Below are positions 9,863 through 36,194 of a stretch of 63,597 nt of DNA, one piece after another. Under the pieces are notes generated by a model that was not told where the DNA came from, searched no databases, and saw nothing but the letters and a program-made list of their open reading frames with translations. The stretch is from a virus (taxonomy: Duplodnaviria; Caudoviricetes): positions 1 through 63,597 of IMG/VR virus record IMGVR_UViG_3300033182_000943, one strand, 5' to 3'. The translations under genes were made by a program, and so were the position numbers. Every line of letters begins with the position of its first letter. The stretch's first letter is position 1.

Positions 9863-10063
9863 ATGATAATAATTAAGAAAGGGCCAAAGGATTCAATTGA
9901 TAAGATGCTTAAGAAGTATAAGCGTAAGTCTATTCGATGCGGATTGCTTAAACAAGTTAGAGAAAGGCAAGAGTACGAAAAGCCTTCATCCGTAAAAAGA
10001 AAGAAAAAGGCAAAGGCGGTTTATCGTCAGAAGATTAATTCTGATAGAGAAAAAAGATCGTAG
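9863..10063 (+). CDS. rpsU: ribosomal protein bS21 (phage-encoded)
   Basis: SIDKMLKKYKRK...GLLKQVRERQEYEKPS..KR. Confidence 0.9.
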   Translation: MIIIKKGPKDSIDKMLKKYKRKSIRCGLLKQVRERQEYEKPSSVKRKKKAKAVYRQKINSDREKRS

Positions 10064-18278: not shown

Positions 18279-21194
18279 ATGGCATTTAATTTAAAAGAAT
18301 ACATTCTTTATAGAACCGAGATTAACCGTGAGCTTTTTAATAGTGAAGTTGACACTAACTTTAAAAGTGTTGCTAATCCATGGGTAGAAGAAAGAGTGTA
18401 TGAGGAAGGTAATATCGTATATCATCCAGTCACTGTTGAATTAGCAACAGGATCCGAGGAGGAGGCCTTAGCATGGTGGAGAGCAAACCAAAGAACAACG
18501 CAAGGTTCATTTGACACCAATGAATGGGACCTTATTGGAGGTATAGGTACTGGTGATATTACCATAGGTGCCCAACCTGGATTCGGAAAGATCGTTGTTA
18601 ATTACACTGGAACTACAGGTACTTTCCAAGCAGGCAATGATGCTGTTCTATCTGCAACGGTTCCTAATGATACCACTAGGCTTATAGGCGGTGCGGGTAT
18701 TAATCTGCAATATGATACCACAACAAATACAGTTAAGATAATTAATTCAGGTTCTGTTGGTGAAGCAAATCATGGAGTTAATATAGGTGTTGGCGGCCAG
18801 GATGTTTATGCAGGTTTAGATGGAACCGATTTAGAGTTTAGAGGATTTGATGTTAATGCTTCAAGTAGTCCTGCATTAACAATATCTTTAGATGCTACAA
18901 ATAATAATATTGAATACGGACTAAGTGAAGGAGCAATAAGCTTGGCTAACTTAGACGGTGGATCTCCTACCATTACAGATCTTTCTGACGTATCATCAAC
19001 ACCTCCTACAAATAATTACATTCTTCAGTGGAATAGTGGTACAGGTCTTTGGACTCCAGTAAGTGTTGCTTCATCAGGTGCACAAGGTCCTCAAGGTTAC
19101 CAAGGTTACCAAGGTTACCAAGGACTTACTGGTTCTGGTGCTACTGGTGCTACTGGTGTAGCCGGCCCACAAGGTAATACTGGTGGATCTGGGGCAACTG
19201 GACCTATAGGATATACTGGAGCAACCGGTTCTGGTGCTACTGGGGCAACCGGTCCACAGGGATTTGATGGAGAGCAAGGAAATGTTGGTGCCACTGGTTC
19301 TGGTGCTACTGGGGCAACCGGTCCTGCTGGGACTGGAGCAACTGGAGCAACTGGTCCTGCTGGGACTGGTGCCACTGGAGCAACTGGTCCTGCTGGGACT
19401 GGAGCAACTGGAGCAACTGGTCCTGCTGGGACTGGTGCCACTGGAGCAACTGGTCCTGCTGGGACTGGTGCCACTGGAGCAACCGGTCCTGTTGGTGCAA
19501 CTGGTGCTGGTTCCATTGGAGCAACCGGTAATCAGGGTGATCCTGGTTCTATTGGAGCAACTGGGGCTCAGGGTGATACTGGGTTTACTGGAGCAACTGG
19601 CTCTGGTTCCATTGGAGCAACTGGGGCTCAAGGTGATACTGGGTTTACTGGTTCAACTGGAGCCCAAGGAGATACGGGATTTACTGGTTCAACCGGAGCC
19701 CAGGGTGATACCGGGTTTACTGGTGCCACTGGATCTGGTCTCACTGGAGCTACTGGAGCCCAGGGCGATACCGGGTTTACTGGTGCCACTGGATCTGGTC
19801 TCACTGGAGCTACTGGAGCCCAGGGTGATACCGGGTTTACTGGAGCCACTGGTGCCCAAGGGAATATTGGAGCCACTGGAGCCCAAGGAGATACCGGGTT
19901 TACCGGTTCAACTGGAGTGCAAGGTGATACAGGATTTACTGGAGCTACTGGTTCTGGTCTCACTGGAGCAACTGGGGCACAAGGTGATACCGGGTTTACT
20001 GGTGCCACCGGATCTTCTGGAGCCCAAGGATTTACAGGTGCAACTGGAGCCCAAGGTGATACAGGATTTACCGGTTCAACTGGGTCTTCTGGGGCCCAAG
20101 GATTTACCGGGTTCACTGGAGCTACTGGCGTAAAAGGATTTACTGGAGCTACTGGAGCACAGGGATTTACTGGAGCTACTGGAGCACAGGGTAACGATGG
20201 TGGTATTGGTGCCGATGGTTCAAATGCACTTAGATGGGAATTTGGTGGTGTTTCAATATCTAATCCACCGTCAGGAGAATTTTATGCTAATAATGTAAAC
20301 ACTGGCGGTGTTGGATCTTTTAATATTAGTTATGATGATACAAACTCAACTAACGTAAGTACATGGCTTTCTAATTTGGAAGCAGGTGATACTCTTGCTA
20401 TTTACCAATTAGACAACACTTCACAGTTTGGAATTTATATAGTCAATTCAGTCACAGACGTTCCGGCTGATAGTTACTATACAATTACTTTTAGCTCGGT
20501 GGTTGCTTCTAGCGGATCATTTAGTATTGGTGAAACGTGGTCCATTTCTTATAACAAAGCCGGTAATACTGGAGCTACTGGGTTAACTGGAGCTACTGGG
20601 GCGCAAGGTGCTACTGGTGGTTCAAGTACACTAGGTAAAGAAAATCCTATAGCAGAAACATCAATCTATATTCAGGGTGGACTTCCAGTTGTATCAACAT
20701 ATGCGGTCTGCGGTCGGAACACTGATGGGGGCTGGTCTCAAAACTGGACCGCTGCTAGTGGACAGATAAATTCAAGTACCTTGAGATTAAGTTATGATTA
20801 TTCTAATGCTGCAATTAATCTGATAGATGATCTCCAGGCGGACCAGGCAATATATGTTAGATATAAAATTACATGGCCACATGTTGGCGGTACCAGCGGT
20901 GATATAGGAATTCGTGCATTTAAACATACGTGCGGTGATGATGATGGTGCTGGGTCCATGAACATTCAAAATATAAATTCAGCAGGATATACTTCATCCA
21001 CCACGGTTTATGATGGTAGTGGTAATTGGGCAACCGATTGTGGAGTGGCTGTATTACCGTTGACCCAAGTGGTTACTGCTTCTACCGATAGAATCTTTAT
21101 AGGTTTTGCTGTAAATGTATCTGAAAGAGAATTGCAAACCGCTAACATTCAACTTTCATGGAAGGCATGGGTAGATGATGCCCCAGTTCCGTAA
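18279..21194 (+). CDS. collagen-like repeat fibre protein
   Basis: Long Gly-X-Y tract (GAT/GFT/GAQ/GDT) flanked by globular domains. Confidence 0.85.
19078..20210 (+). repeat. collagen-coding tandem repeats (33-bp and 60-bp units)
   Basis: [11 protein letters not shown] about 5 times; [20 protein letters not shown] repeated at 60-bp period. Confidence 0.9.
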
Positions 21195-21727: not shown

Positions 21728-21770
21728 TAACAGCTACAAATAATAGATAATATATAATAAAATTGAAAGT

Positions 21771-22145
21771 ATGAATAACATTCCTAATCGTAGAGAAAGA
21801 AGAGCCGCAATGCGCTACCAAGGTGTCCTAAAGGCTAAAAGCAAATTACCTTTTGCTAAATGGCTAGAACTTATTAGAGAAACTAATAAACAAGGTAAGG
21901 AAATATTTGAAACCAAAAGAGATGCTACTGAACAATCTATTGCAGATCAATTGGAAGCCAAAGAATTGGTACAAATTGAGAGATGGAAAGAACAGGGATA
22001 TACACAAGAAGAAATTGAAAAGCTTAGAGAAGCTTGGGCCATTCTTACCATTAGGGATAAAGAAACTTGGCATACAGATAAAAAGGTAGCTAGAAAAATT
22101 TTAAAAGAAACTTCTGAAGCTCTGTATAATAGAAAGAATGATTAA
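21771..22145 (+). CDS. hypothetical protein
   Basis: PNRRERR start; helical. Confidence 0.75.
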   Translation: MNNIPNRRERRAAMRYQGVLKAKSKLPFAKWLELIRETNKQGKEIFETKRDATEQSIADQLEAKELVQIERWKEQGYTQEEIEKLREAWAILTIRDKETWHTDKKVARKILKETSEALYNRKND

Positions 22146-27306: not shown

Positions 27307-28734
27307 ATGCCCTTAGTAGATTTAGCAAACCCTTTAAATAGTGGAGGCCTTAGACAATTGGCCGGACCATTTGGTGATGTATTTGGGCCAGGTGATCAAT
27401 TTCCTAATTCATATGAGTTCGGTAAAAGATTTGTTTCTACTGCCTCATCTGTATCAGGTGGAGGTAACGGTGTTACTAGTTTAGATGACCCGACATATTT
27501 AGGGTTTCAGATTAGATTTGATGGTATGAGTCCTCTATTTAACGGAGCAGAGATAGGGTCTACAGAACCTCCTGTCAACCAGGTACCATCAATTGCAGAT
27601 TTAGCAGCACAAGAGTTAGGATTTATAAATGGAAACCCTGATGATACTACTAATGCTAATTCAGGGAGCCATCCATCGGGTGAGTCTGCTGTAGGTTACT
27701 TGGAAAAGGTAGGTGAAGCAAACAGAGCTAATTATCTTAGATCATTTGTACAAGGTATTAGACACATAGAGAGAACTAGGCCTTATTATTTTCAAACCAT
27801 TGAAGGGCTATCGGAAGCATGGAACAAAACCGTTAATATGGTTGATCCTTATGGTGGAGCTGCCGAAGGCGAAGGAATTACGATAGGATTGCTTGAAGCT
27901 ATCGACCTAAAAATGTCAGCTCTATTTAGTCTTTATAAATTGGCATGTTATGACACTAGGTACAAAAGAACAGTTTTACCTATTAACCTAATGTACTTTA
28001 ATGTTGATGTTGATGTATTTGAAATTAGAAAATTTAAAACAGTTAGAAATTGGTTAGCTGCTCTTAATCTTAGCGATACTTCACCAGATACAATTAACTT
28101 CGTAAATGAAAATACTTCAAAGATTACCTTTAGATTTGAAGAATGTAAATGGGATCCTACCCAAACCGGAGTTATATTTGGTAATGTTACAAATGCAGGT
28201 GGAAATGCCATGGCCGTCAGTTCTATGAAATGGAGTTATGGGAGAGTTTTAATGGATTCCCAATTCTCAGGTTACAACTCAGCTCTTAAAGATGCAGCGC
28301 AACAAAAACCTGAATCACCTACATTAAAGAATGCAGTTAAAAACTTTGCAAAAGATCAATTAGCAAATGCAGCTAAAGGGGCTGTGAATAATTTACAAAG
28401 AGGGTTATCTTCAAAGTTTCAAAGTTTTGCTTTAGGTAATGTATTTGGTTTAAGAAATCAAATATTTAATGCAATACAAAATCCACAAGCAGTATTAAGT
28501 GCTGCACAAGGTGCATTGGTTCAAACCGAGCAAATAGGTGGTGATTTAGCTAAAATAAATAGGCTAGGAGATAATCCATTGGGTGAAGCAGTACAACCGC
28601 CTAACTCATTACCTACTGATAATATAAACGCAGGACAGATCCCATCGGATCCTAGTCCTTTAAGTTCTAATAATATATTTGGGCGTGGACCATCAGGACC
28701 CGCCCCTCTTGAATCTAATAATGTATTTGAATAA
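27307..28734 (+). CDS. putative baseplate tail-tube initiator/cap (gp48/gp54-like)
   Basis: Located between hub and spike; beta-rich core. Confidence 0.45.
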   Translation: MPLVDLANPLNSGGLRQLAGPFGDVFGPGDQFPNSYEFGKRFVSTASSVSGGGNGVTSLDDPTYLGFQIRFDGMSPLFNGAEIGSTEPPVNQVPSIADLAAQELGFINGNPDDTTNANSGSHPSGESAVGYLEKVGEANRANYLRSFVQGIRHIERTRPYYFQTIEGLSEAWNKTVNMVDPYGGAAEGEGITIGLLEAIDLKMSALFSLYKLACYDTRYKRTVLPINLMYFNVDVDVFEIRKFKTVRNWLAALNLSDTSPDTINFVNENTSKITFRFEECKWDPTQTGVIFGNVTNAGGNAMAVSSMKWSYGRVLMDSQFSGYNSALKDAAQQKPESPTLKNAVKNFAKDQLANAAKGAVNNLQRGLSSKFQSFALGNVFGLRNQIFNAIQNPQAVLSAAQGALVQTEQIGGDLAKINRLGDNPLGEAVQPPNSLPTDNINAGQIPSDPSPLSSNNIFGRGPSGPAPLESNNVFE

Positions 28735-29621
28735 TGGGAAGATTAAGTGCAAGAGACCTAGCATCTGATAGTTTAAGAGGTACCCAATGGGTTGGGGTGG
28801 TTGAAGATACTGAAGACGAACTTTTTGAAGGAAGGGTTCGCTTAAGAGTTTTTGGTAAGATGGATCAAAGAGTAGACCCAGAGGATCCTGAGAGTGATTA
28901 TGTAATGCCTACAGCTGCATTACCTTGGGCAAGGCCTTCTGTTGCATCTTCCGGTGGAAGCAATAGTGGAAGTGGAACCTTTTCGGTTCCTAAGATAGGT
29001 ACTATAGTTAGGGTTACTTTTGATAACGGAAATTACTATTCTCCAGTTTATCATGAAAGCTTATATCCTTCAGATGAGCTGAAGGCTGAAATAGAAGCAT
29101 CATATCAGAATTCTCATGTACTTATTTACGATACCGCCTTTGGTTTAACTGGCGGTGGTAATGAAGAAGTTACTAATGAAAGAGAAGGTGAAAGTATAAA
29201 GGTTTTCTTTACTGAGGAAAAGGGACTAATGATGGATTATACCACAACGGAAGGTCCTACTACAGTTAACATTAAGCCTGATAATTCTGTTGAAATAATA
29301 AATGCAAACGGGGATTCAATTGTAATGCTTAATGATGGTAACATTACATTTACACATTCCGCAAAATTCATAATTAATAGTACTGATAACACAGAGATTA
29401 ATTGTAAGGATGCAATTATTAATTGCCAAAATACTATTATTAATCATTCATCATCAATTGAATTAGGCCAAGGTGCTAGCGAAAAGATCATATTAGGTGA
29501 TACCTTTATGAAGTTCTTTAATCAACATACACATGTTGGAAACCTCGGGGCTCCTACCTCGCCTCCTATAGTACCTATGTCTCCTGCACAACTTAGTAAG
29601 AAGAACGTCAAATCTCTATAA
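28734..29621 (+). CDS. baseplate central spike (gp5/VgrG-like)
   Basis: WVGVVED..D..EGRVRLRVFG, LPWA, VPKIG OB fold; beta-helix repeats; HTH tip. Confidence 0.88.
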   Translation: MGRLSARDLASDSLRGTQWVGVVEDTEDELFEGRVRLRVFGKMDQRVDPEDPESDYVMPTAALPWARPSVASSGGSNSGSGTFSVPKIGTIVRVTFDNGNYYSPVYHESLYPSDELKAEIEASYQNSHVLIYDTAFGLTGGGNEEVTNEREGESIKVFFTEEKGLMMDYTTTEGPTTVNIKPDNSVEIINANGDSIVMLNDGNITFTHSAKFIINSTDNTEINCKDAIINCQNTIINHSSSIELGQGASEKIILGDTFMKFFNQHTHVGNLGAPTSPPIVPMSPAQLSKKNVKSL

Positions 29622-29645
29622 ATATATAAACTAATAAATTAAACT

Positions 29646-29933
29646 ATGGCACTAGTACCTCCAACTCTACAAGAATCATTAACAGCTGCTTATGCGGCGG
29701 CATTAACAGACTTCATTGCAGTCATTAAAGCTAACCCACTAGGAACCGATGCAGGCGCCGCGAACTTAACAGCAGCTGTCGCATCTTCATCTGTGATATT
29801 TGGTAAGTTATCCGGAACTGCAATTGATGCATATATTAGATCTGCACAGGTTGCACCAGGCCAGGTTGTTACAACTGCGGGTACCGCTGTTGCCCAGACT
29901 GGTGCTACAACAACCCCAGGTGTTCTGGTATAA
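29646..29933 (+). CDS. small structural protein (possible spike tip)
   Basis: Directly after the spike gene; Ala/Thr-rich. Confidence 0.55.
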   Translation: MALVPPTLQESLTAAYAAALTDFIAVIKANPLGTDAGAANLTAAVASSSVIFGKLSGTAIDAYIRSAQVAPGQVVTTAGTAVAQTGATTTPGVLV

Positions 29934-29958
29934 AACAATTTGCTTTCATAATATATAA
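29933..29958 (+). promoter_or_regulatory. class II promoter AAAC-N17-TATAA
   Basis: Motif match upstream of the bS1-like gene. Confidence 0.6.
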
Positions 29959-29990
29959 TCTATATAGTTCAACTCTTTAAACAAAAAATA

Positions 29991-31154
29991 ATGATCGAAC
30001 AAGAAATTACGATCCAATTAAGCGACGATCCGTTTGACACAAAAACAATTAAAGTCCTAGTTCCACCAGGAACCAAAATTTTATCCACAGAGCCTTATGT
30101 AGCCGATGTACTTGAAATGTACAGTCTTTCAGAATCTGTAGAAAAGCAACTTCATTTATGCGAGGATATGCAAAGCTATACCACCCAAGGCGAAATAGTT
30201 GGATTTTCATTAGATAAAGAAGGTAATAAAACTACCGCAATAATTGACTTAGGAACTAAGTACACTGCAATATGTCATTTATTGAAAGAACCTAAACACA
30301 TAGTAGAACAATTAGAAGAAGGTATTGTTGTAGATGTTAAAGTTAAGCCTGGTAAAAATGGAAATGTTATAGCTTCAATCTCAGATGCAATAGATGAAGT
30401 TAAGATGAAGGAAATTATGAATGCTATTGGTGATAAGACCATAGGATTCACTGGAAAGGTTACCGAGCTGTTACATGGTGGTTACTGGGTTGAGGTTGGT
30501 GGTATACAATGCTTTATGCCAGGTTCTCTAGCAGGCCTTAATAAGTTATACGATTTTAACTCTTTAGTTGGAAAGGAAATTATAGTTATGCCAATATCTT
30601 ATTCTGATGAAAAGAATACGATTATTGTTTCTCATAGAGAATACTTAAGAACTTTAATTCCTAGCGCAGTTGAATCGGCTAGAGAAAATATCAAAGATCA
30701 TATAACCGGGTTTGTTACAGGTACTACTAAGTTTGGTATATTTGCTGAGTTTAATGAATGCTTAACAGGTCTTATTCCATTATCTGACGTAGATGAAGAT
30801 ACATTAACCAAGTTTAATAATAGAGAGATTAAGCCAGGTGATGATATCAGTTTCTGGATTAAAGAAATTATCACCGAAAGAAAAATTATCTTATCTCAAA
30901 CCGGTCCTAAAGAAAACATCTGGGATGATGCTAATGATAAGTATAAGCCTATGATGATTACACCCGGTAAAGTTACAAAGGTTACTAAATACGGAGCCTT
31001 CGTTGAACTAGAAAAAGGTATCAGCGGATTAATTCATAAATCTAAACTTAAAGAAATTGAGTTAACTAAAGGTGATGTTGTTAATGTAAAAATACAAAGC
31101 ATCAATGCAAGTGATAGAAAGATAACTATGAATCTAGCTGAAAGTGAAGGGTAA
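29991..31154 (+). CDS. rpsA: ribosomal protein bS1-like protein (about four S1 domains)
   Basis: GGYWVEVGGIQCFMPGS, KFGIFAEF..LTGLIPLS, GKVTKVTKYGAFVELEKGISGLIHKS. Confidence 0.85.
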   Translation: MIEQEITIQLSDDPFDTKTIKVLVPPGTKILSTEPYVADVLEMYSLSESVEKQLHLCEDMQSYTTQGEIVGFSLDKEGNKTTAIIDLGTKYTAICHLLKEPKHIVEQLEEGIVVDVKVKPGKNGNVIASISDAIDEVKMKEIMNAIGDKTIGFTGKVTELLHGGYWVEVGGIQCFMPGSLAGLNKLYDFNSLVGKEIIVMPISYSDEKNTIIVSHREYLRTLIPSAVESARENIKDHITGFVTGTTKFGIFAEFNECLTGLIPLSDVDEDTLTKFNNREIKPGDDISFWIKEIITERKIILSQTGPKENIWDDANDKYKPMMITPGKVTKVTKYGAFVELEKGISGLIHKSKLKEIELTKGDVVNVKIQSINASDRKITMNLAESEG

Positions 31155-31722
31155 AGAGAAACTTATAATAAACGATGAAAGGATCGTCTACGCAGATCCT
31201 AGCTCAGCTAGCTTAGGTCAAGGAACTATGGTTATGATGCGGTGGGAGGACGAGATCATGAGGTTAAGCTCAAAATGGGTAACTTATAATCAAGGTGATA
31301 TTTTGGAGTTTGGTTTTGGTATGGGATTATCTGCTGGTCATATACAATCATATAAACCAAAAAGTCATACTATAATTGAAATACACCCTGAGATTGCAAA
31401 GAAAGCTGAAGAATGGGCAAAGGATAAACCTGGGGTTAAAATCATAAATGCAGATTGGTGGGATGTAAAGGATGATTTGGAAATGTATGATGGTATATTT
31501 TTTGATACATTTAATGATCGCCATGAACCCGACTGGTTTAAGGTAGCCCAGAGTAAATCAAAGCCAAACTGCCACATATCATTTTATAATAACAGGCCGT
31601 ATAGAGGTAATGCATACGGCATAGAAGTGGTTGACTATATTCACAAGAGAGTTATGCCACCTAAGAATGACTATTACTGGTACACCAATTATTATGTACC
31701 TTTGGTTATTCATAATCCATAA
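31144..31722 (+). CDS. class I SAM-dependent methyltransferase, Rmt2/GAMT-like
   Basis: VMMRWEDEIM, ILEFGFGMG, HTIIEIHP, DWWD, YDGIFFDTF. Confidence 0.85.
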   Translation: MKGKEKLIINDERIVYADPSSASLGQGTMVMMRWEDEIMRLSSKWVTYNQGDILEFGFGMGLSAGHIQSYKPKSHTIIEIHPEIAKKAEEWAKDKPGVKIINADWWDVKDDLEMYDGIFFDTFNDRHEPDWFKVAQSKSKPNCHISFYNNRPYRGNAYGIEVVDYIHKRVMPPKNDYYWYTNYYVPLVIHNP

Positions 31723-31760
31723 TCTTTATGCATGGAATATATAAACAAATTAGATAATGC

Positions 31761-33059
31761 ATGTATTCCAACGAACAGCTTAATGCCATATATTCGTCTA
31801 AGGTAGGTTTTGAATTTGAATTTTTTGCTAATGAAGATATACAAGAAGCAAAAACAAGCATAGCCAATACTCTTAATAAGAAAATCCGTATCGAGGAAAA
31901 GGCCCATAGTGACTTTACCCCAACCGATGAAGTATTTAAGATGGAGCCTGATAATTCCGGTGGTACTGGAATGATTGAGCTAGTTACCGGCCCACTACCT
32001 TTTGTTGAAGCTAAAATAATAATGGCTAAAACTTTAAAGTGGATTCAGGAAAATGGATCAACTAATGATAGATGTTCTATTCATGTTAACTTAGCATTTG
32101 ATGGTAAAAAGTTAGGACCAATAACCAATATGTCTAAACTGGATATTGGTAAGTTTGTTTTAAACTTTGATGAAGATAAAGTATATGAAGCCTTTCCAAA
32201 CAGAAAGGATTCTGTTTATGCTAAATCAATTAAGTTTATCGTGCCTCTTAGCGGAATGACTCAGAATTCGCCAGGTAAAAATATGTGGCATAATTACATG
32301 TTTGTTAATGAGAAGTATTATGGAATTAATTTTACCAAGATTCCTAAGGGTTATATTGAATTCCGTTACTTAGGTGGTAAAGATTATGAAAAGAAGTATA
32401 ACACCATTCTTTCTATGACTGAGCATTTTCTGCTTTCTCTTTATGAAACATTAACCAATCCAACTTATAGCGAGGATGATATGAAAAAGCTTGATGCTGT
32501 TCTTGAAAAACACCAAGATGTAATTCAATCATATAAGACCTATCAAAGGTTTAAGGAAAAGTTTCCAGATGTTAAGATTATGATTGATCTTAAAACTGCT
32601 GATCAAATAGTAGAAATGTATTATCCTAGAATAAGAGATCGCATTTTTGATTTGCTTACTAAGGCAGATTTAAAAGAAGGACTTATAAACTATGATAGCG
32701 ATACTGGGCGTATTCAAATAAAGGATGCCGAGTTAAAAAGATGTTTTGAAATCAATGATGTTGATATTGTTGATTGTATAATAAAAGGAAACATTAAGGG
32801 CTGTGATATATTTAGCAGTGAATTGGTGGATTCATCAATTTTTGAATGTAACCTTTTCGGTGGTACTGAATGTAAAGGATGTAAGATTGAAGAATCTTAT
32901 GTTAGTAGAAATGTAACTGCTGATGAGTGCTATGTGTTTGGTCATAGGGGTGTATTCAGTGGAGAGATGGAAGGTGGAATATTTAGACAAGGCAGAGCCA
33001 CAAAGTTTGCCAGATTTAGTGATACCACTGAGGTCATAGAAATAGAAAAAATTAAATAA
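31761..33059 (+). CDS. putative amidoligase (COOH-NH2 ligase) with C-terminal beta-helix-like repeats
   Basis: VGFEFEF, ELVTGP, CSIHVN, KYYGIN, IEFRY. Confidence 0.75.
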   Translation: MYSNEQLNAIYSSKVGFEFEFFANEDIQEAKTSIANTLNKKIRIEEKAHSDFTPTDEVFKMEPDNSGGTGMIELVTGPLPFVEAKIIMAKTLKWIQENGSTNDRCSIHVNLAFDGKKLGPITNMSKLDIGKFVLNFDEDKVYEAFPNRKDSVYAKSIKFIVPLSGMTQNSPGKNMWHNYMFVNEKYYGINFTKIPKGYIEFRYLGGKDYEKKYNTILSMTEHFLLSLYETLTNPTYSEDDMKKLDAVLEKHQDVIQSYKTYQRFKEKFPDVKIMIDLKTADQIVEMYYPRIRDRIFDLLTKADLKEGLINYDSDTGRIQIKDAELKRCFEINDVDIVDCIIKGNIKGCDIFSSELVDSSIFECNLFGGTECKGCKIEESYVSRNVTADECYVFGHRGVFSGEMEGGIFRQGRATKFARFSDTTEVIEIEKIK

Positions 33060-33061
33060 GT

Positions 33062-33904
33062 ATGCCATACGTAGACTGCAATGATCCGGATGCTAAAGAT
33101 TGTTTAGACGCTCTCATTAAGGAAATAAATGAAGAGCTAACTATTACATGCCAAATACCTTTTACCGTTCCTAAGAAGGAAATAGCTAGAATAGTAAGTA
33201 AAGCAAAAAACTATTTCTATAAGATCTATGAAGATAGTGTAGAGGAAATGTATATTGCATTACCTAGATCTGCGTGGGCTAAAACAAGCTTTAGAAAAGG
33301 TATTAACGATGAGAGTGATGCTCTATCTAAAACCAACCTAGATAGTACAAGAGGGATAGTACCAATGCCTCCTGGTGTATGGGCTGTAAATAATGTTTGG
33401 GAATGGTCAGGTTTTAGTGGAGAAGATGGTGGATTTGGTAGTACTTCTTTTTCCGCAGGCGATCCGGATTTTTCAATTGATAAGTTTATTTACTCTGATA
33501 CATACGGTGCTGGTATAGGTTCAGAAAACCTGATGTATTATGTAATTAATTCTAAGTTTATTGATAATGCAAGACAAGTATTACAAGCACAAATATCATA
33601 TTCCTATAATAGGTTAACTAATAAGTTTAGATTCCAAGGACAGTTACCCAAACATGCATGTATCTTCCAAATATACAAAACAATTCCAGACTGTGCACTG
33701 TTCCAAGATGAAGCCTTCTACCGTTATTGCGTAGGTATGGCTAAAATACAGCTATCTAGAATTCTAGGGACCTTCCAATTTAATCTACCAGGTAACATTA
33801 CCATAAACTACGATATGATAGCCAGTGAAGGGAGAGAAGATGTTGATCGTGTAGTTGAGGAGATTAAAGGAGATGAAGGTGTTGACTATTTCTTCACAGG
33901 ATAA
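33062..33904 (+). CDS. neck protein (gp13-like)
   Basis: LPGNITINYDMIASEG...FFTG C-terminus. Confidence 0.7.
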   Translation: MPYVDCNDPDAKDCLDALIKEINEELTITCQIPFTVPKKEIARIVSKAKNYFYKIYEDSVEEMYIALPRSAWAKTSFRKGINDESDALSKTNLDSTRGIVPMPPGVWAVNNVWEWSGFSGEDGGFGSTSFSAGDPDFSIDKFIYSDTYGAGIGSENLMYYVINSKFIDNARQVLQAQISYSYNRLTNKFRFQGQLPKHACIFQIYKTIPDCALFQDEAFYRYCVGMAKIQLSRILGTFQFNLPGNITINYDMIASEGREDVDRVVEEIKGDEGVDYFFTG

Positions 33905-33960
33905 TTATAATCTAAGATCGGTACTTTTTTAAGAGAATATATATTAAAAGAATATTCTCC

Positions 33961-34323
33961 ATGATTAGAGACATATATAGTAGGAATGCCGAGGCCTTCA
34001 AATATAATGAAGATGTTGTAGAGGTTACAGATGAGGTGTCTCAGCTTATACTGAAAATAGAGAACGTTTTGTTTTCAAGAAGAGGCGATGTATTAGGAGC
34101 ACCGGGTTATGGCTGTAATCTTGATGATCTTATCTTTTCTTTAGTATTTAATGAAGCAGTAGTTAAGCAGAGAATTGTATCCCAGATACAAGCATATTGT
34201 TTACCTGATGATTCAAGGTTCTCTATTGATGTACAGGTTAAATTCTTTCAAACATTAGAAAGAGCAGGTGCATTGGTGGATATTTTTATTAATGAAAATA
34301 GGGTCATAGGCGCATTATTTTAA
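33961..34323 (+). CDS. baseplate wedge subunit (gp25-like)
   Basis: LFSRRGDVLGAPGYGCNL. Confidence 0.85.
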   Translation: MIRDIYSRNAEAFKYNEDVVEVTDEVSQLILKIENVLFSRRGDVLGAPGYGCNLDDLIFSLVFNEAVVKQRIVSQIQAYCLPDDSRFSIDVQVKFFQTLERAGALVDIFINENRVIGALF

Positions 34324-34337
34324 AAATATAGAATTGA

Positions 34338-36194
34338 ATGTCATTCTTTAGTAGAACACGAATAAAGGCAACAGAGCTGTTTCAGGATTCATTTGAATAC
34401 CTGGCAAGAACTTATGAACAGGCAAGAGAGGTGTTTACTCCAGCTTCGCCGTTTGGGCAAATCCTTACTGTGATAGCTAATTTAGGTGAAATGATTTTCT
34501 TTTATATTGAAGCAGTTGCTACCGAGCTCAATATATCAAGAGCAAGAAACATTGAATCTATTTACGGTCTTTCAAGATTAACCGGTCACGATCCTACGAG
34601 AGGTATTTCTGCCAGGGGAATTATAGGATTAAGATTAAATCAAAATGCAAGTGCATTAGTAAACGGTGACTTTGTTCAAATTATGAATAAAGCAAAATTT
34701 GAAGTAGGGAACAACGGATTATCCTACTTCTTAAACTTTGATAGTGATTACATTAGATTAGAAAAGACAGATAGACAATTTGTAAATGTTGAAATTATAC
34801 AGGGGGAGGTTGAAGATCAAACATTTACTGGAAGCGGTACATCATTACAGAGTTACAATCTTACCACCAAAGAACCAACGGACCAACATCTTGTAACGGT
34901 TCATGTTGATGGGCAGCTTTGGAGAAAGGTTGATTCACTGTATGATATGGGTCCTAATGAAAAATGTGTAATGGTCAAAACCAGCGTTAATGGTGGTTTA
35001 AGTATATTCTTTGGCAATAATCAGTTTGGTATGGCTCCTGCATTAGGATCAATTATTAAAGTTACTTATGTTAAGACTAGAGGTAATGCAGGTAATATAG
35101 GTGGTAAGAATTTAGATATTAAGTTCCAAGATGAAGGTACTGATTACATCGGTGATGGGGTTGATCTTAATGAGGTTCTTTCTTTAGATATTGTACGTAA
35201 TCCTAATTTTGGATCTGATACTGAAGACCCAGCGTTTACAAGATTAATTGCTCCATACCAAAGCAATTCATTTGTATTGGCAAATCCTAATAATTACATT
35301 TACTATCTTAGTAAGTATGATGCGTTTTCTTTCATAGATGCATACAATACGAAAGATGACCAATATTTAGATGATGACAATATCATTTATCTTTTCTTAG
35401 TTCCAGATATTAAGAAAAAGATTACAAGCGATAAGGATTACTTTAATGTAGCTGAAGAAGAGTTTACTTTAACGGCTGATGAAAAGGAGCAGGTTTATGA
35501 AATCTTAAATGCTAGCGGTAGGCAAGTAGTAACCGCTGAGGTTAGAATTAATGATCCTATAATAAAAAGATATGCTCTTAACATTGTTCTTAGGTGGATA
35601 GAAGGATATGATAAAGATGATATTACTGTAGAGATAAGAAAGCAATTAAATGACTATTTCTTAAATGTAAATAGAAGAGATCGTATTCCAAGATCTGATA
35701 TTATTTCAATCATAGAAAATGTTGAAGGGGTTGACTCTGTTAATGTGTTCTTTATTTCACAGGAAAATGAAAAGGCAATTGCCGATGGTTTTTATTTTGT
35801 GCCGGTTTATGGTATTGATCCAGCAACAGATCAAAAGGCATTGATTGAAAATAAAAAGATTGTATTAGCAGAAGGGGAAGATCCACAAATAGGTTTGGAT
35901 GAATTTGGTGATATTATTATTGGCCCTGATGATATAGCAATTATTAGAGGTGGTTGGAAAGACAGAAACGGTACGTACTTTGAAGAAGTTCCTGTTAAGA
36001 ATGGTATCGGTTCATTGAATGTTTTCTATAAGTCTGTAATTTCAGGTAACTTATACAACAAAACTCAACAAGAAAGATATGATCAGTTAAGAAGAAACAG
36101 AGGTACTACTATTGCTACTGGTAGAAATTCTAGATCATCTAATACTGGAAGATTACAGGGCGAATCAACACAAAAAGTAATTAACAACTTATAA
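34338..36194 (+). CDS. baseplate wedge subunit (gp6-like)
   Basis: IFFGNNQFGMAP..GSIIKVTYVKTRGNAGN; follows gp25. Confidence 0.8.
   Translation: MSFFSRTRIKATELFQDSFEYLARTYEQAREVFTPASPFGQILTVIANLGEMIFFYIEAVATELNISRARNIESIYGLSRLTGHDPTRGISARGIIGLRLNQNASALVNGDFVQIMNKAKFEVGNNGLSYFLNFDSDYIRLEKTDRQFVNVEIIQGEVEDQTFTGSGTSLQSYNLTTKEPTDQHLVTVHVDGQLWRKVDSLYDMGPNEKCVMVKTSVNGGLSIFFGNNQFGMAPALGSIIKVTYVKTRGNAGNIGGKNLDIKFQDEGTDYIGDGVDLNEVLSLDIVRNPNFGSDTEDPAFTRLIAPYQSNSFVLANPNNYIYYLSKYDAFSFIDAYNTKDDQYLDDDNIIYLFLVPDIKKKITSDKDYFNVAEEEFTLTADEKEQVYEILNASGRQVVTAEVRINDPIIKRYALNIVLRWIEGYDKDDITVEIRKQLNDYFLNVNRRDRIPRSDIISIIENVEGVDSVNVFFISQENEKAIADGFYFVPVYGIDPATDQKALIENKKIVLAEGEDPQIGLDEFGDIIIGPDDIAIIRGGWKDRNGTYFEEVPVKNGIGSLNVFYKSVISGNLYNKTQQERYDQLRRNRGTTIATGRNSRSSNTGRLQGESTQKVINNL

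Follow-up and report, generated by a model that had tools for sequence, protein, structure and literature searches.

A short methyltransferase gene (31144-31722, + strand) lies directly behind a gene resembling that of ribosomal protein bS1 in IMG/VR virus record IMGVR_UViG_3300033182_000943, a tailed-phage sequence whose 63,597 nt were analysed as a whole (hereafter the window). Our analysis predicts, from the sequence and a structural model, that this open reading frame (ORF) encodes a functional class I S-adenosylmethionine (SAM)-dependent methyltransferase of the GAMT/RMT2 family, and indicates that the gene is an insertion into a baseplate module; in family membership and insertion we have high confidence. 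A sequence-only reading of the window had proposed that the two genes form a coupled system acting on the ribosome. That S1-methyltransferase system is not supported, because the linkage is not conserved among relatives and the junction between the genes hosts unrelated inserts; the coupling is an accident of insertion. Taken as a whole, the best explanation that we can offer is an inserted GAMT/RMT2-family enzyme with guanidino or amidino groups of virion components as its probable substrates, an account that we consider to have an even chance of being correct.

Family assignment and insertion of the methyltransferase

The sequence-only reading had picked out four motifs, all of which are present in the translation (MVMMRWEDEIM, EFGFGMG, SHTIIEIHPE and YDGIFFDTF); in an alignment of 30 family sequences the columns that hold them are invariant or nearly so. 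When searched against PDB sequences with phmmer, the protein matched four GAMT sequences (E 3.6e-10 to 4.6e-09), the next match being at E 0.2; query residue 131 is the last one aligned, and the C-terminal third has no sequence alignment with GAMT. Two GAMT residues, D134 (in YDT) and E45 (in RWE), the latter of which we take to be the partner of D134 in the pair that binds the guanidino group, align with query residues D121 and E35, and both of these are unchanged in all 30 of the family members aligned. D134 has been proposed as the proton acceptor in GAMT (PMC12471008). By analogy with E45/D134, the Glu35/Asp121 pair would hold and deprotonate the substrate, and the methyl group would be expected to go to a guanidino or amidino nitrogen.

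An AlphaFold2 model built on the same 30-sequence alignment forms a single domain with a predicted local distance difference test (pLDDT) score of 95.5. Foldseek placed GAMT at ranks 1-5 (E 1e-12 to 2.5e-11, the best being 1.1e-12; TMq 0.71-0.82), with the next chain at E 1.2e-07. VIA, an aligner independent of Foldseek that was run against 48,161 representative chains, superposed model residues 1-191 on GAMT residues 17-236 with a Z score of 22.8 and a root-mean-square deviation of 1.9 Å over 182 residues, the next chain reaching Z 15.0. Sequence, fold and catalytic residues therefore agree with the GAMT/Rmt2-like family named in the earlier reading; GAMT is the best structural match, and no other methyltransferase class fits the model better. 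The family itself is already catalogued: PF27704 (Atlas name GuanidinoAc_N-MeTrfase) is precomputed for the entry of the window protein and for all of its listed homologs, and the Atlas listing of PF27704 has many clusters from tailed viruses. A Pfam scan returned the generic Methyltransf_25, below its cut-off, and a search of PHROGs returned no family for it. Close homologs are 180-200 aa long and open with the same MKGKE N-terminus, which backs the GTG start; the nearest relative has ATG at this position, within a TAATG stop/start overlap.

Compared with mammalian GAMT (PDB 3orh, 1xcj, 1khh), the window enzyme has the same fold over nearly its whole length, the glycine-rich SAM motif and the residues aligned with E45/D134. 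It differs in its length (192 aa, vs ~236 aa in GAMT), in its low identity (22-25% in structural alignments) and in being encoded by a phage, among structural genes and without creatine-pathway genes in the vicinity. Yeast Rmt2 presumably belongs to the same GAMT-like domain family. It is a protein of ~400 aa with an extra N-terminal region before the GAMT-like domain, whereas the window protein is a bare single domain and has no conserved link to uL11 or to any ribosomal gene. No Rmt2 entry was present among the listed PDB matches from phmmer, Foldseek and VIA. Elsewhere a GAMT-like domain related to the phage enzyme (E 2.3e-19) is fused to the C-terminal part of a Nitrospira non-ribosomal peptide synthetase (P0204/P0408, 1901 aa, residues ~1710-1813), and further occurrences are in bacterial proteins of ~400 aa and choanoflagellate proteins of ~350 aa.

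The conservation of the pairing was assessed from both genes. Methyltransferase loci were collected by an alignment-based scan of IMG/VR, from which the best 80 of 532 viral matches were taken (a single-protein query yielded 0 confirmed loci), and their ORFs were searched with every window protein; the S1 loci were 80 viral loci (63-85% identity) out of 107 S1 matches. An S1-like gene lay near the methyltransferase in only one of the 80 methyltransferase loci (L068), and in 0 of the other 79. From the opposite side, the methyltransferase followed S1 in one of the 80 S1 loci (L093) and was absent from 78 of the 79 with readable downstream sequence, one locus ending at the S1 gene. L068 and L093 are the same contig, the closest relative of the window, in which the methyltransferase is 77% identical to the window's and synteny extends across the whole baseplate module. 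The coupling claimed in the sequence-only reading thus comes down to a single relative, and the synteny check found the bS1 linkage unconserved in either direction.

What usually follows S1 is the gene for an amidoligase-like protein of 432 aa, which stands directly behind it in 74 of the 80 S1 loci, the spacing, among those reported, being 41-43 nt in the common arrangements and 33 nt at the smallest. Other loci carry different genes at the junction, including a 135-aa ORF of unknown family (3 of 80; for example L095 5191-5598) and a 332-aa protein with PKD and leucine-rich repeats (1 of 80; L110 5185-6183). The hub, S1 and amidoligase-like genes stand in this order in a 462-kb huge phage, where three different small ORFs occupy the junction (L172 7083-8077) and the methyltransferase is missing; in the 634-kb phage LR745206.1 a methyltransferase of 42.6% identity and an S1 homolog are ~31.5 kb apart, with no S1 beside the methyltransferase. 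A conserved GGAATATATAAAC element stands ahead of the 432-aa gene in all relatives compared, and the window's methyltransferase gene fits precisely between this element and the S1 stop. The simplest history is that the pairing is a recent insertion, gained in the lineage of the window and L068 at a spacer that tolerates inserts. The methyltransferase gene would have been acquired by horizontal transfer, landing in the ~42-nt stretch that separates the S1-like gene of the baseplate module from its amidoligase-like partner; other marine phages, with copies 44-55% identical, are the likely donors. The S1-like/amidoligase-like spacer is itself an insertion hot spot.

Gene neighbourhood and candidate targets

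The surroundings of the methyltransferase in other phages were read from the 79 loci outside the window's lineage. A cement-like protein is encoded within 1.5 kb upstream and on the same strand in 60 of them, and is directly adjacent in 52. These upstream proteins range from ~100 to >2,600 aa and have a C-terminal domain of ~115 aa in common, which, when scanned singly, matched Phage_cement_2 (PF09956) in 5 of 31 cases and Phage_cement (PF22758) in 3 of 31, and no other Pfam family; against PDB sequences a profile of the domain found nothing significant, the best match being a phage minor capsid protein at E 0.52. An invariant Arg lies within an IVRxxGY stretch of the domain, and the proteins are possibly head fibres anchored by it. 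Directly downstream, in 61 of the 79 loci (for example L039 8553-9230), is a gene for a protein of ~228 aa that has no Pfam or PHROG match. Its model (pLDDT 87) is a beta-sandwich with carbohydrate-binding modules as best, moderate matches (8wab, E 2e-05, TMq 0.50), and its consensus contains an SGRGGGTxRxxR stretch with two nearly invariant arginines.

At least one of these two neighbours is found in 72 of the 79 loci, and three of the seven loci with neither have <400 nt of upstream sequence. Clustering of the methyltransferases at 70% identity gave 19 clusters, in which the cement-like neighbour occurs in 15 and the beta-sandwich protein in 14, and the association is therefore not that of one clonal population. 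Further neighbours include terminase, portal, sheath, tube and a ConA-like lectin, with glycosyltransferases in a minority; PHROGs held no family for the large ORFs upstream of the methyltransferase in LR745206.1. The common theme of the neighbourhood is late, virion-surface genes, the window's baseplate module included. The cement-like family itself is found at loci L006-L067 and others (for example L039 6268-7986), and some of its members are mostly collagen-like. Arginines of collagen fibres were considered as the methyltransferase target and rejected: only 12 of 76 loci have at least 30 aa of G-X-Y upstream, and the repeats are without arginine. An initial BLAST single-linkage cluster (69 loci) had looked collagen-driven, its representative being a collagen-like protein of 2655 aa, and the idea was dropped because the feature in common is the C-terminal domain of ~115 aa.

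Because the family-wide neighbours are virion surface-protein genes, we favour a virion-associated component as the target of the enzyme, either the arginine side chains of proteins at the virion surface or an amidino group borne by the glycans of such proteins, and hold this with somewhat less than even confidence. Modification of virion components had been named as an alternative in the sequence-only reading; it fits the family-wide neighbourhood better than the ribosome does, but the window has neither conserved partner. Several points weigh against our interpretation. Gene neighbourhood is the sole evidence for a virion target, it is known from the best 80 of 532 viral matches, and structural modules commonly take in unrelated accessory genes. 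Neither the cement-like domain nor the beta-sandwich family was found in the window, which covers ~22% of the genome, and the methyltransferases most similar to the window's (L002-L005, L013 and L019; 44-54% identity) have no cement-like neighbour. The N-terminal segment of GAMT closes over its small substrate, and the model superposes on GAMT including the stretch aligned to this segment, which fits a small-molecule enzyme equally; a small-molecule enzyme is also the source of the only characterised structures in the family. Finally, the tight overlap of the S1-like and methyltransferase genes, kept in one relative, could reflect selection for co-expression.

A broader version of the virion proposal would hold that the short PF27704 methyltransferases of tailed phages are arginine or amidino N-methyltransferases that modify cement-domain fibres, beta-sandwich adhesin-like proteins and baseplate or fibre proteins, and are not creatine-pathway genes. 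We put this forward tentatively, as a generalization that is possible and still rather doubtful. Our literature searches found no paper on virion arginine or amidino methylation by such phage enzymes.

An unlikely but not negligible alternative is that the protein is a small-molecule auxiliary metabolic enzyme, that is, a guanidinoacetate N-methyltransferase of creatine synthesis or a methylase of some other free guanidino or amidino metabolite. GAMT is its nearest characterised protein, 182 of the 192 residues being matched at 1.9 Å with the N-terminal segment included, and both residues aligned with the GAMT guanidino-binding pair are kept; moreover, the Nitrospira peptide synthetase fusion suggests small or carrier-bound substrates within the family. 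Viral GAMT (K00542) from the ocean virome has indeed been listed as an auxiliary metabolic gene (AMG), 85-fold enriched over microbial homologs, with creatine production proposed (Tian et al., 2024, PMC11360552). The viral genes in question probably belong to the family studied here, being PF27704 members of uncultured marine tailed phages. Whereas that paper reads them as creatine synthesis genes, the neighbourhoods found here (cement-like, beta-sandwich and lectin-like proteins) point to virion components. In none of the 81 loci inspected did an amidinotransferase or creatine kinase partner adjoin the gene, and in most loci the gene lies amid virion genes of head, tail or baseplate modules, which would be unusual for metabolic genes. 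The sequence match to GAMT is also incomplete, ending at residue 131, before any comparison of the GAMT carboxylate-binding site.

The proposal of the sequence-only reading was that a phage protein-arginine methyltransferase acts on the ribosome, on bS1 or on bS21. In its fuller form, an Rmt2-type enzyme would be expressed together with S1, would methylate the phage S1-like protein, bS21 or a host ribosomal protein, and would remodel the ribosome for phage translation; we now regard this as improbable. In its favour, Rmt2 makes delta-N-methylarginine on R67 of Rpl12, so that a domain of this kind can act on a protein arginine (PMC10265986), and several homologs are automatically annotated at source as 'protein arginine N-methyltransferase 2' or 'type IV protein arginine methyltransferase'. 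One close relative retains an overlap of the S1 stop with the methyltransferase start, a bS21 homolog is encoded in the window at 9890-10030, and the relatives are huge phages for which a takeover of translation has been proposed (PMC7162821). Against this, none of our results points to the ribosome, bS1 or bS21 as the target, more than 70 relatives keep S1 without the methyltransferase, the same junction takes up unrelated inserts, the two genes are far apart in LR745206.1, and the conserved partners of the methyltransferase family are virion proteins and not translation genes.

A nucleic-acid methyltransferase of rRNA, tRNA or phage DNA, acting for example on an exocyclic amino or amidino nitrogen of a base, is very improbable: the weak generic matches to RrnaAD (E 4.2e-4, below cut-off) and to ksgA/Erm models (E 0.013-0.032), and RlmLK and tRNA methyltransferases among the lower-ranked fold matches, are no stronger than for class I Rossmann methyltransferases in general (Z 13-15), with GAMT ~8 Z units higher and 5 orders of magnitude better by Foldseek E-value, and the (D/N)PP(Y/F) motif that m2G enzymes carry is absent, the motif IV region reading FFDTF. 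The remaining probability we assign to some other target.

The S1-like gene, its expression and the setting of the window

Judging by its sequence, the upstream gene is S1-like and not a bS1 equivalog. It matches Pfam S1 at E 3.7e-24, and NCBIfam rpsA models cover residues 79-382 (E 1e-37 to 3e-43), which in TIGR00717 (E 1.4e-37) are collinear with profile positions 30-342 of 516. The rpsA equivalog cut-offs are missed by far (148 bits vs 624, and 130 vs 368), and it is in the sense of S1-like that the earlier assignment of a bS1-like ORF holds. More than 100 homologous proteins share 63-95% identity with the window's; in deposited phage genomes the best matches are from huge phages of 462-735 kb, at 35-43% identity. 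The leader of the gene is A-rich and has no obvious Shine-Dalgarno site at the start. Phage-encoded homologs of ribosomal protein S1 are said to have been described by Mizuno et al. in 2019. In huge phages, S1 homologs have been found to correlate with missing Shine-Dalgarno sites (Al-Shayeb et al., 2020, PMC7162821). The window gene resembles these homologs in being S1-like with a leader in which no Shine-Dalgarno site is obvious; it differs in that it is fixed in a baseplate module and paired with an amidoligase-like gene, a position not found described in the accessible part of that paper.

The amidoligase-like partner belongs to a family of which 9 of 15 members match Amidoligase_2, all weakly, and neither the single 432-aa protein nor its profile matched any PDB sequence. 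Its gene stands within two genes after S1 in all 79 loci with readable downstream sequence, and the pair is also present in the 462-kb huge phage LR756500.1 (L172 5911-9654), at 43-44% identity. The fixed pair, found in the window (29991-33059), at loci L093-L171 and at L172, thus extends from marine phages of ~200 kb to a 462-kb huge phage. The RNA-binding S1 homolog kept in this baseplate operon could be packaged, injected or simply expressed late.

That the genes lie in a baseplate module, as the sequence-only reading had it, is borne out by the hub and wedge genes on either side (Table 1), and the 11-nt overlap that it described between the S1-like and methyltransferase ORFs was likewise confirmed, along with the position of both ORFs. 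Co-transcription and translational coupling of the methyltransferase are inferred: it would be transcribed by read-through from the late-promoter-like element of the S1-like gene and translated by stop/start coupling. The promoter itself can be endorsed in part. The earlier reading had given the S1-like gene its own class II promoter, the label being that reading's own, and an ATATATAA element, which we take to resemble a T4-type late promoter, is indeed found before the S1-like start. Copies at 21750, 29622, 29951, 31737, 57455 and 63195 precede six + strand ORF starts by 20-40 nt, lying 39 nt before the S1-like start, 23 nt before the start of the 432-aa gene and 20-33 nt before the ORF starts at 21771, 29646, 57483 and 63229. 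The total of ATATATAA in the window, however, is not above chance (13, vs 10.6 +/- 3.0 in shuffles), and therefore only its placement and its conservation in relatives speak for a promoter. No ATATATAA-like element was found ahead of the methyltransferase, and scans of 28500-34500 for sigma-70 promoters and intrinsic terminators gave results not above shuffled expectation.

With an estimated completeness of ~22%, the window would be a fragment of the genome, some 300 kb in size, of a large marine phage. By protein, the deposited phages closest to it are huge phages of 462-735 kb, and no DNA near-identical to the window was found in deposited phage genomes. The window phage encodes a bS21 (+ strand; Pfam Ribosomal_S21, 39.7 bits, above cut-off) plus the S1-like protein. 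A 971-aa protein (18279-21194, +) contains ~400 aa of collagen-like G-X-Y repeats without arginine and accounts for a local rise in GC to 0.46.

Table 1. Features in and around the S1-like/methyltransferase junction of the window
Feature	Position	Strand	Remarks
Baseplate hub / central spike OB-domain protein	28734..29621	+	Pfam Phage_base_V 1.4e-05; phrog_430 baseplate hub 1.1e-15
Promoter-like ATATATAA element	29951..29958	+	39 nt upstream of the S1-like start
bS1-like protein, 387 aa, ATG start	29991..31154	+	phage-specific N-terminal ~78 aa, then four S1/OB repeats
Overlap of S1-like stop and methyltransferase GTG start, 11 nt	31144..31154	+	putative translational coupling
GAMT/RMT2-family (PF27704) SAM-dependent guanidino N-methyltransferase (predicted), 192 aa, GTG start	31144..31722	+	lineage-specific insertion
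Conserved promoter-like element GGAATATATAAACAAATTAGATAA	31734..31757	+	before the 432-aa gene; also directly after the S1 stop in L093, L094 and L101
Amidoligase-like protein, 432 aa	31761..33059	+	Pfam Amidoligase_2 6.3e-4, below cut-off
gp25-like and gp6-like baseplate wedge proteins	33961..36194	+	phrog_43 7.6e-4 and phrog_219 2.2e-26

Had a ribosome-directed arginine methyltransferase been coupled to a phage S1, it would have given phages a new means of taking over translation; that claim should be dropped. Two of the observations made here may outweigh the original finding. One is the S1-like/amidoligase-like pair in the baseplate module of this phage clade, which deserves a look of its own; the other is the family-wide link between phage 'GAMT' genes and virion surface proteins. 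This widespread family, read as a creatine AMG, is found mostly amid virion surface-protein genes, which suggests a role in modifying proteins or glycans of the phage particle. If true, this would constitute an undescribed kind of bacteriophage virion modification and would overturn the published AMG reading.

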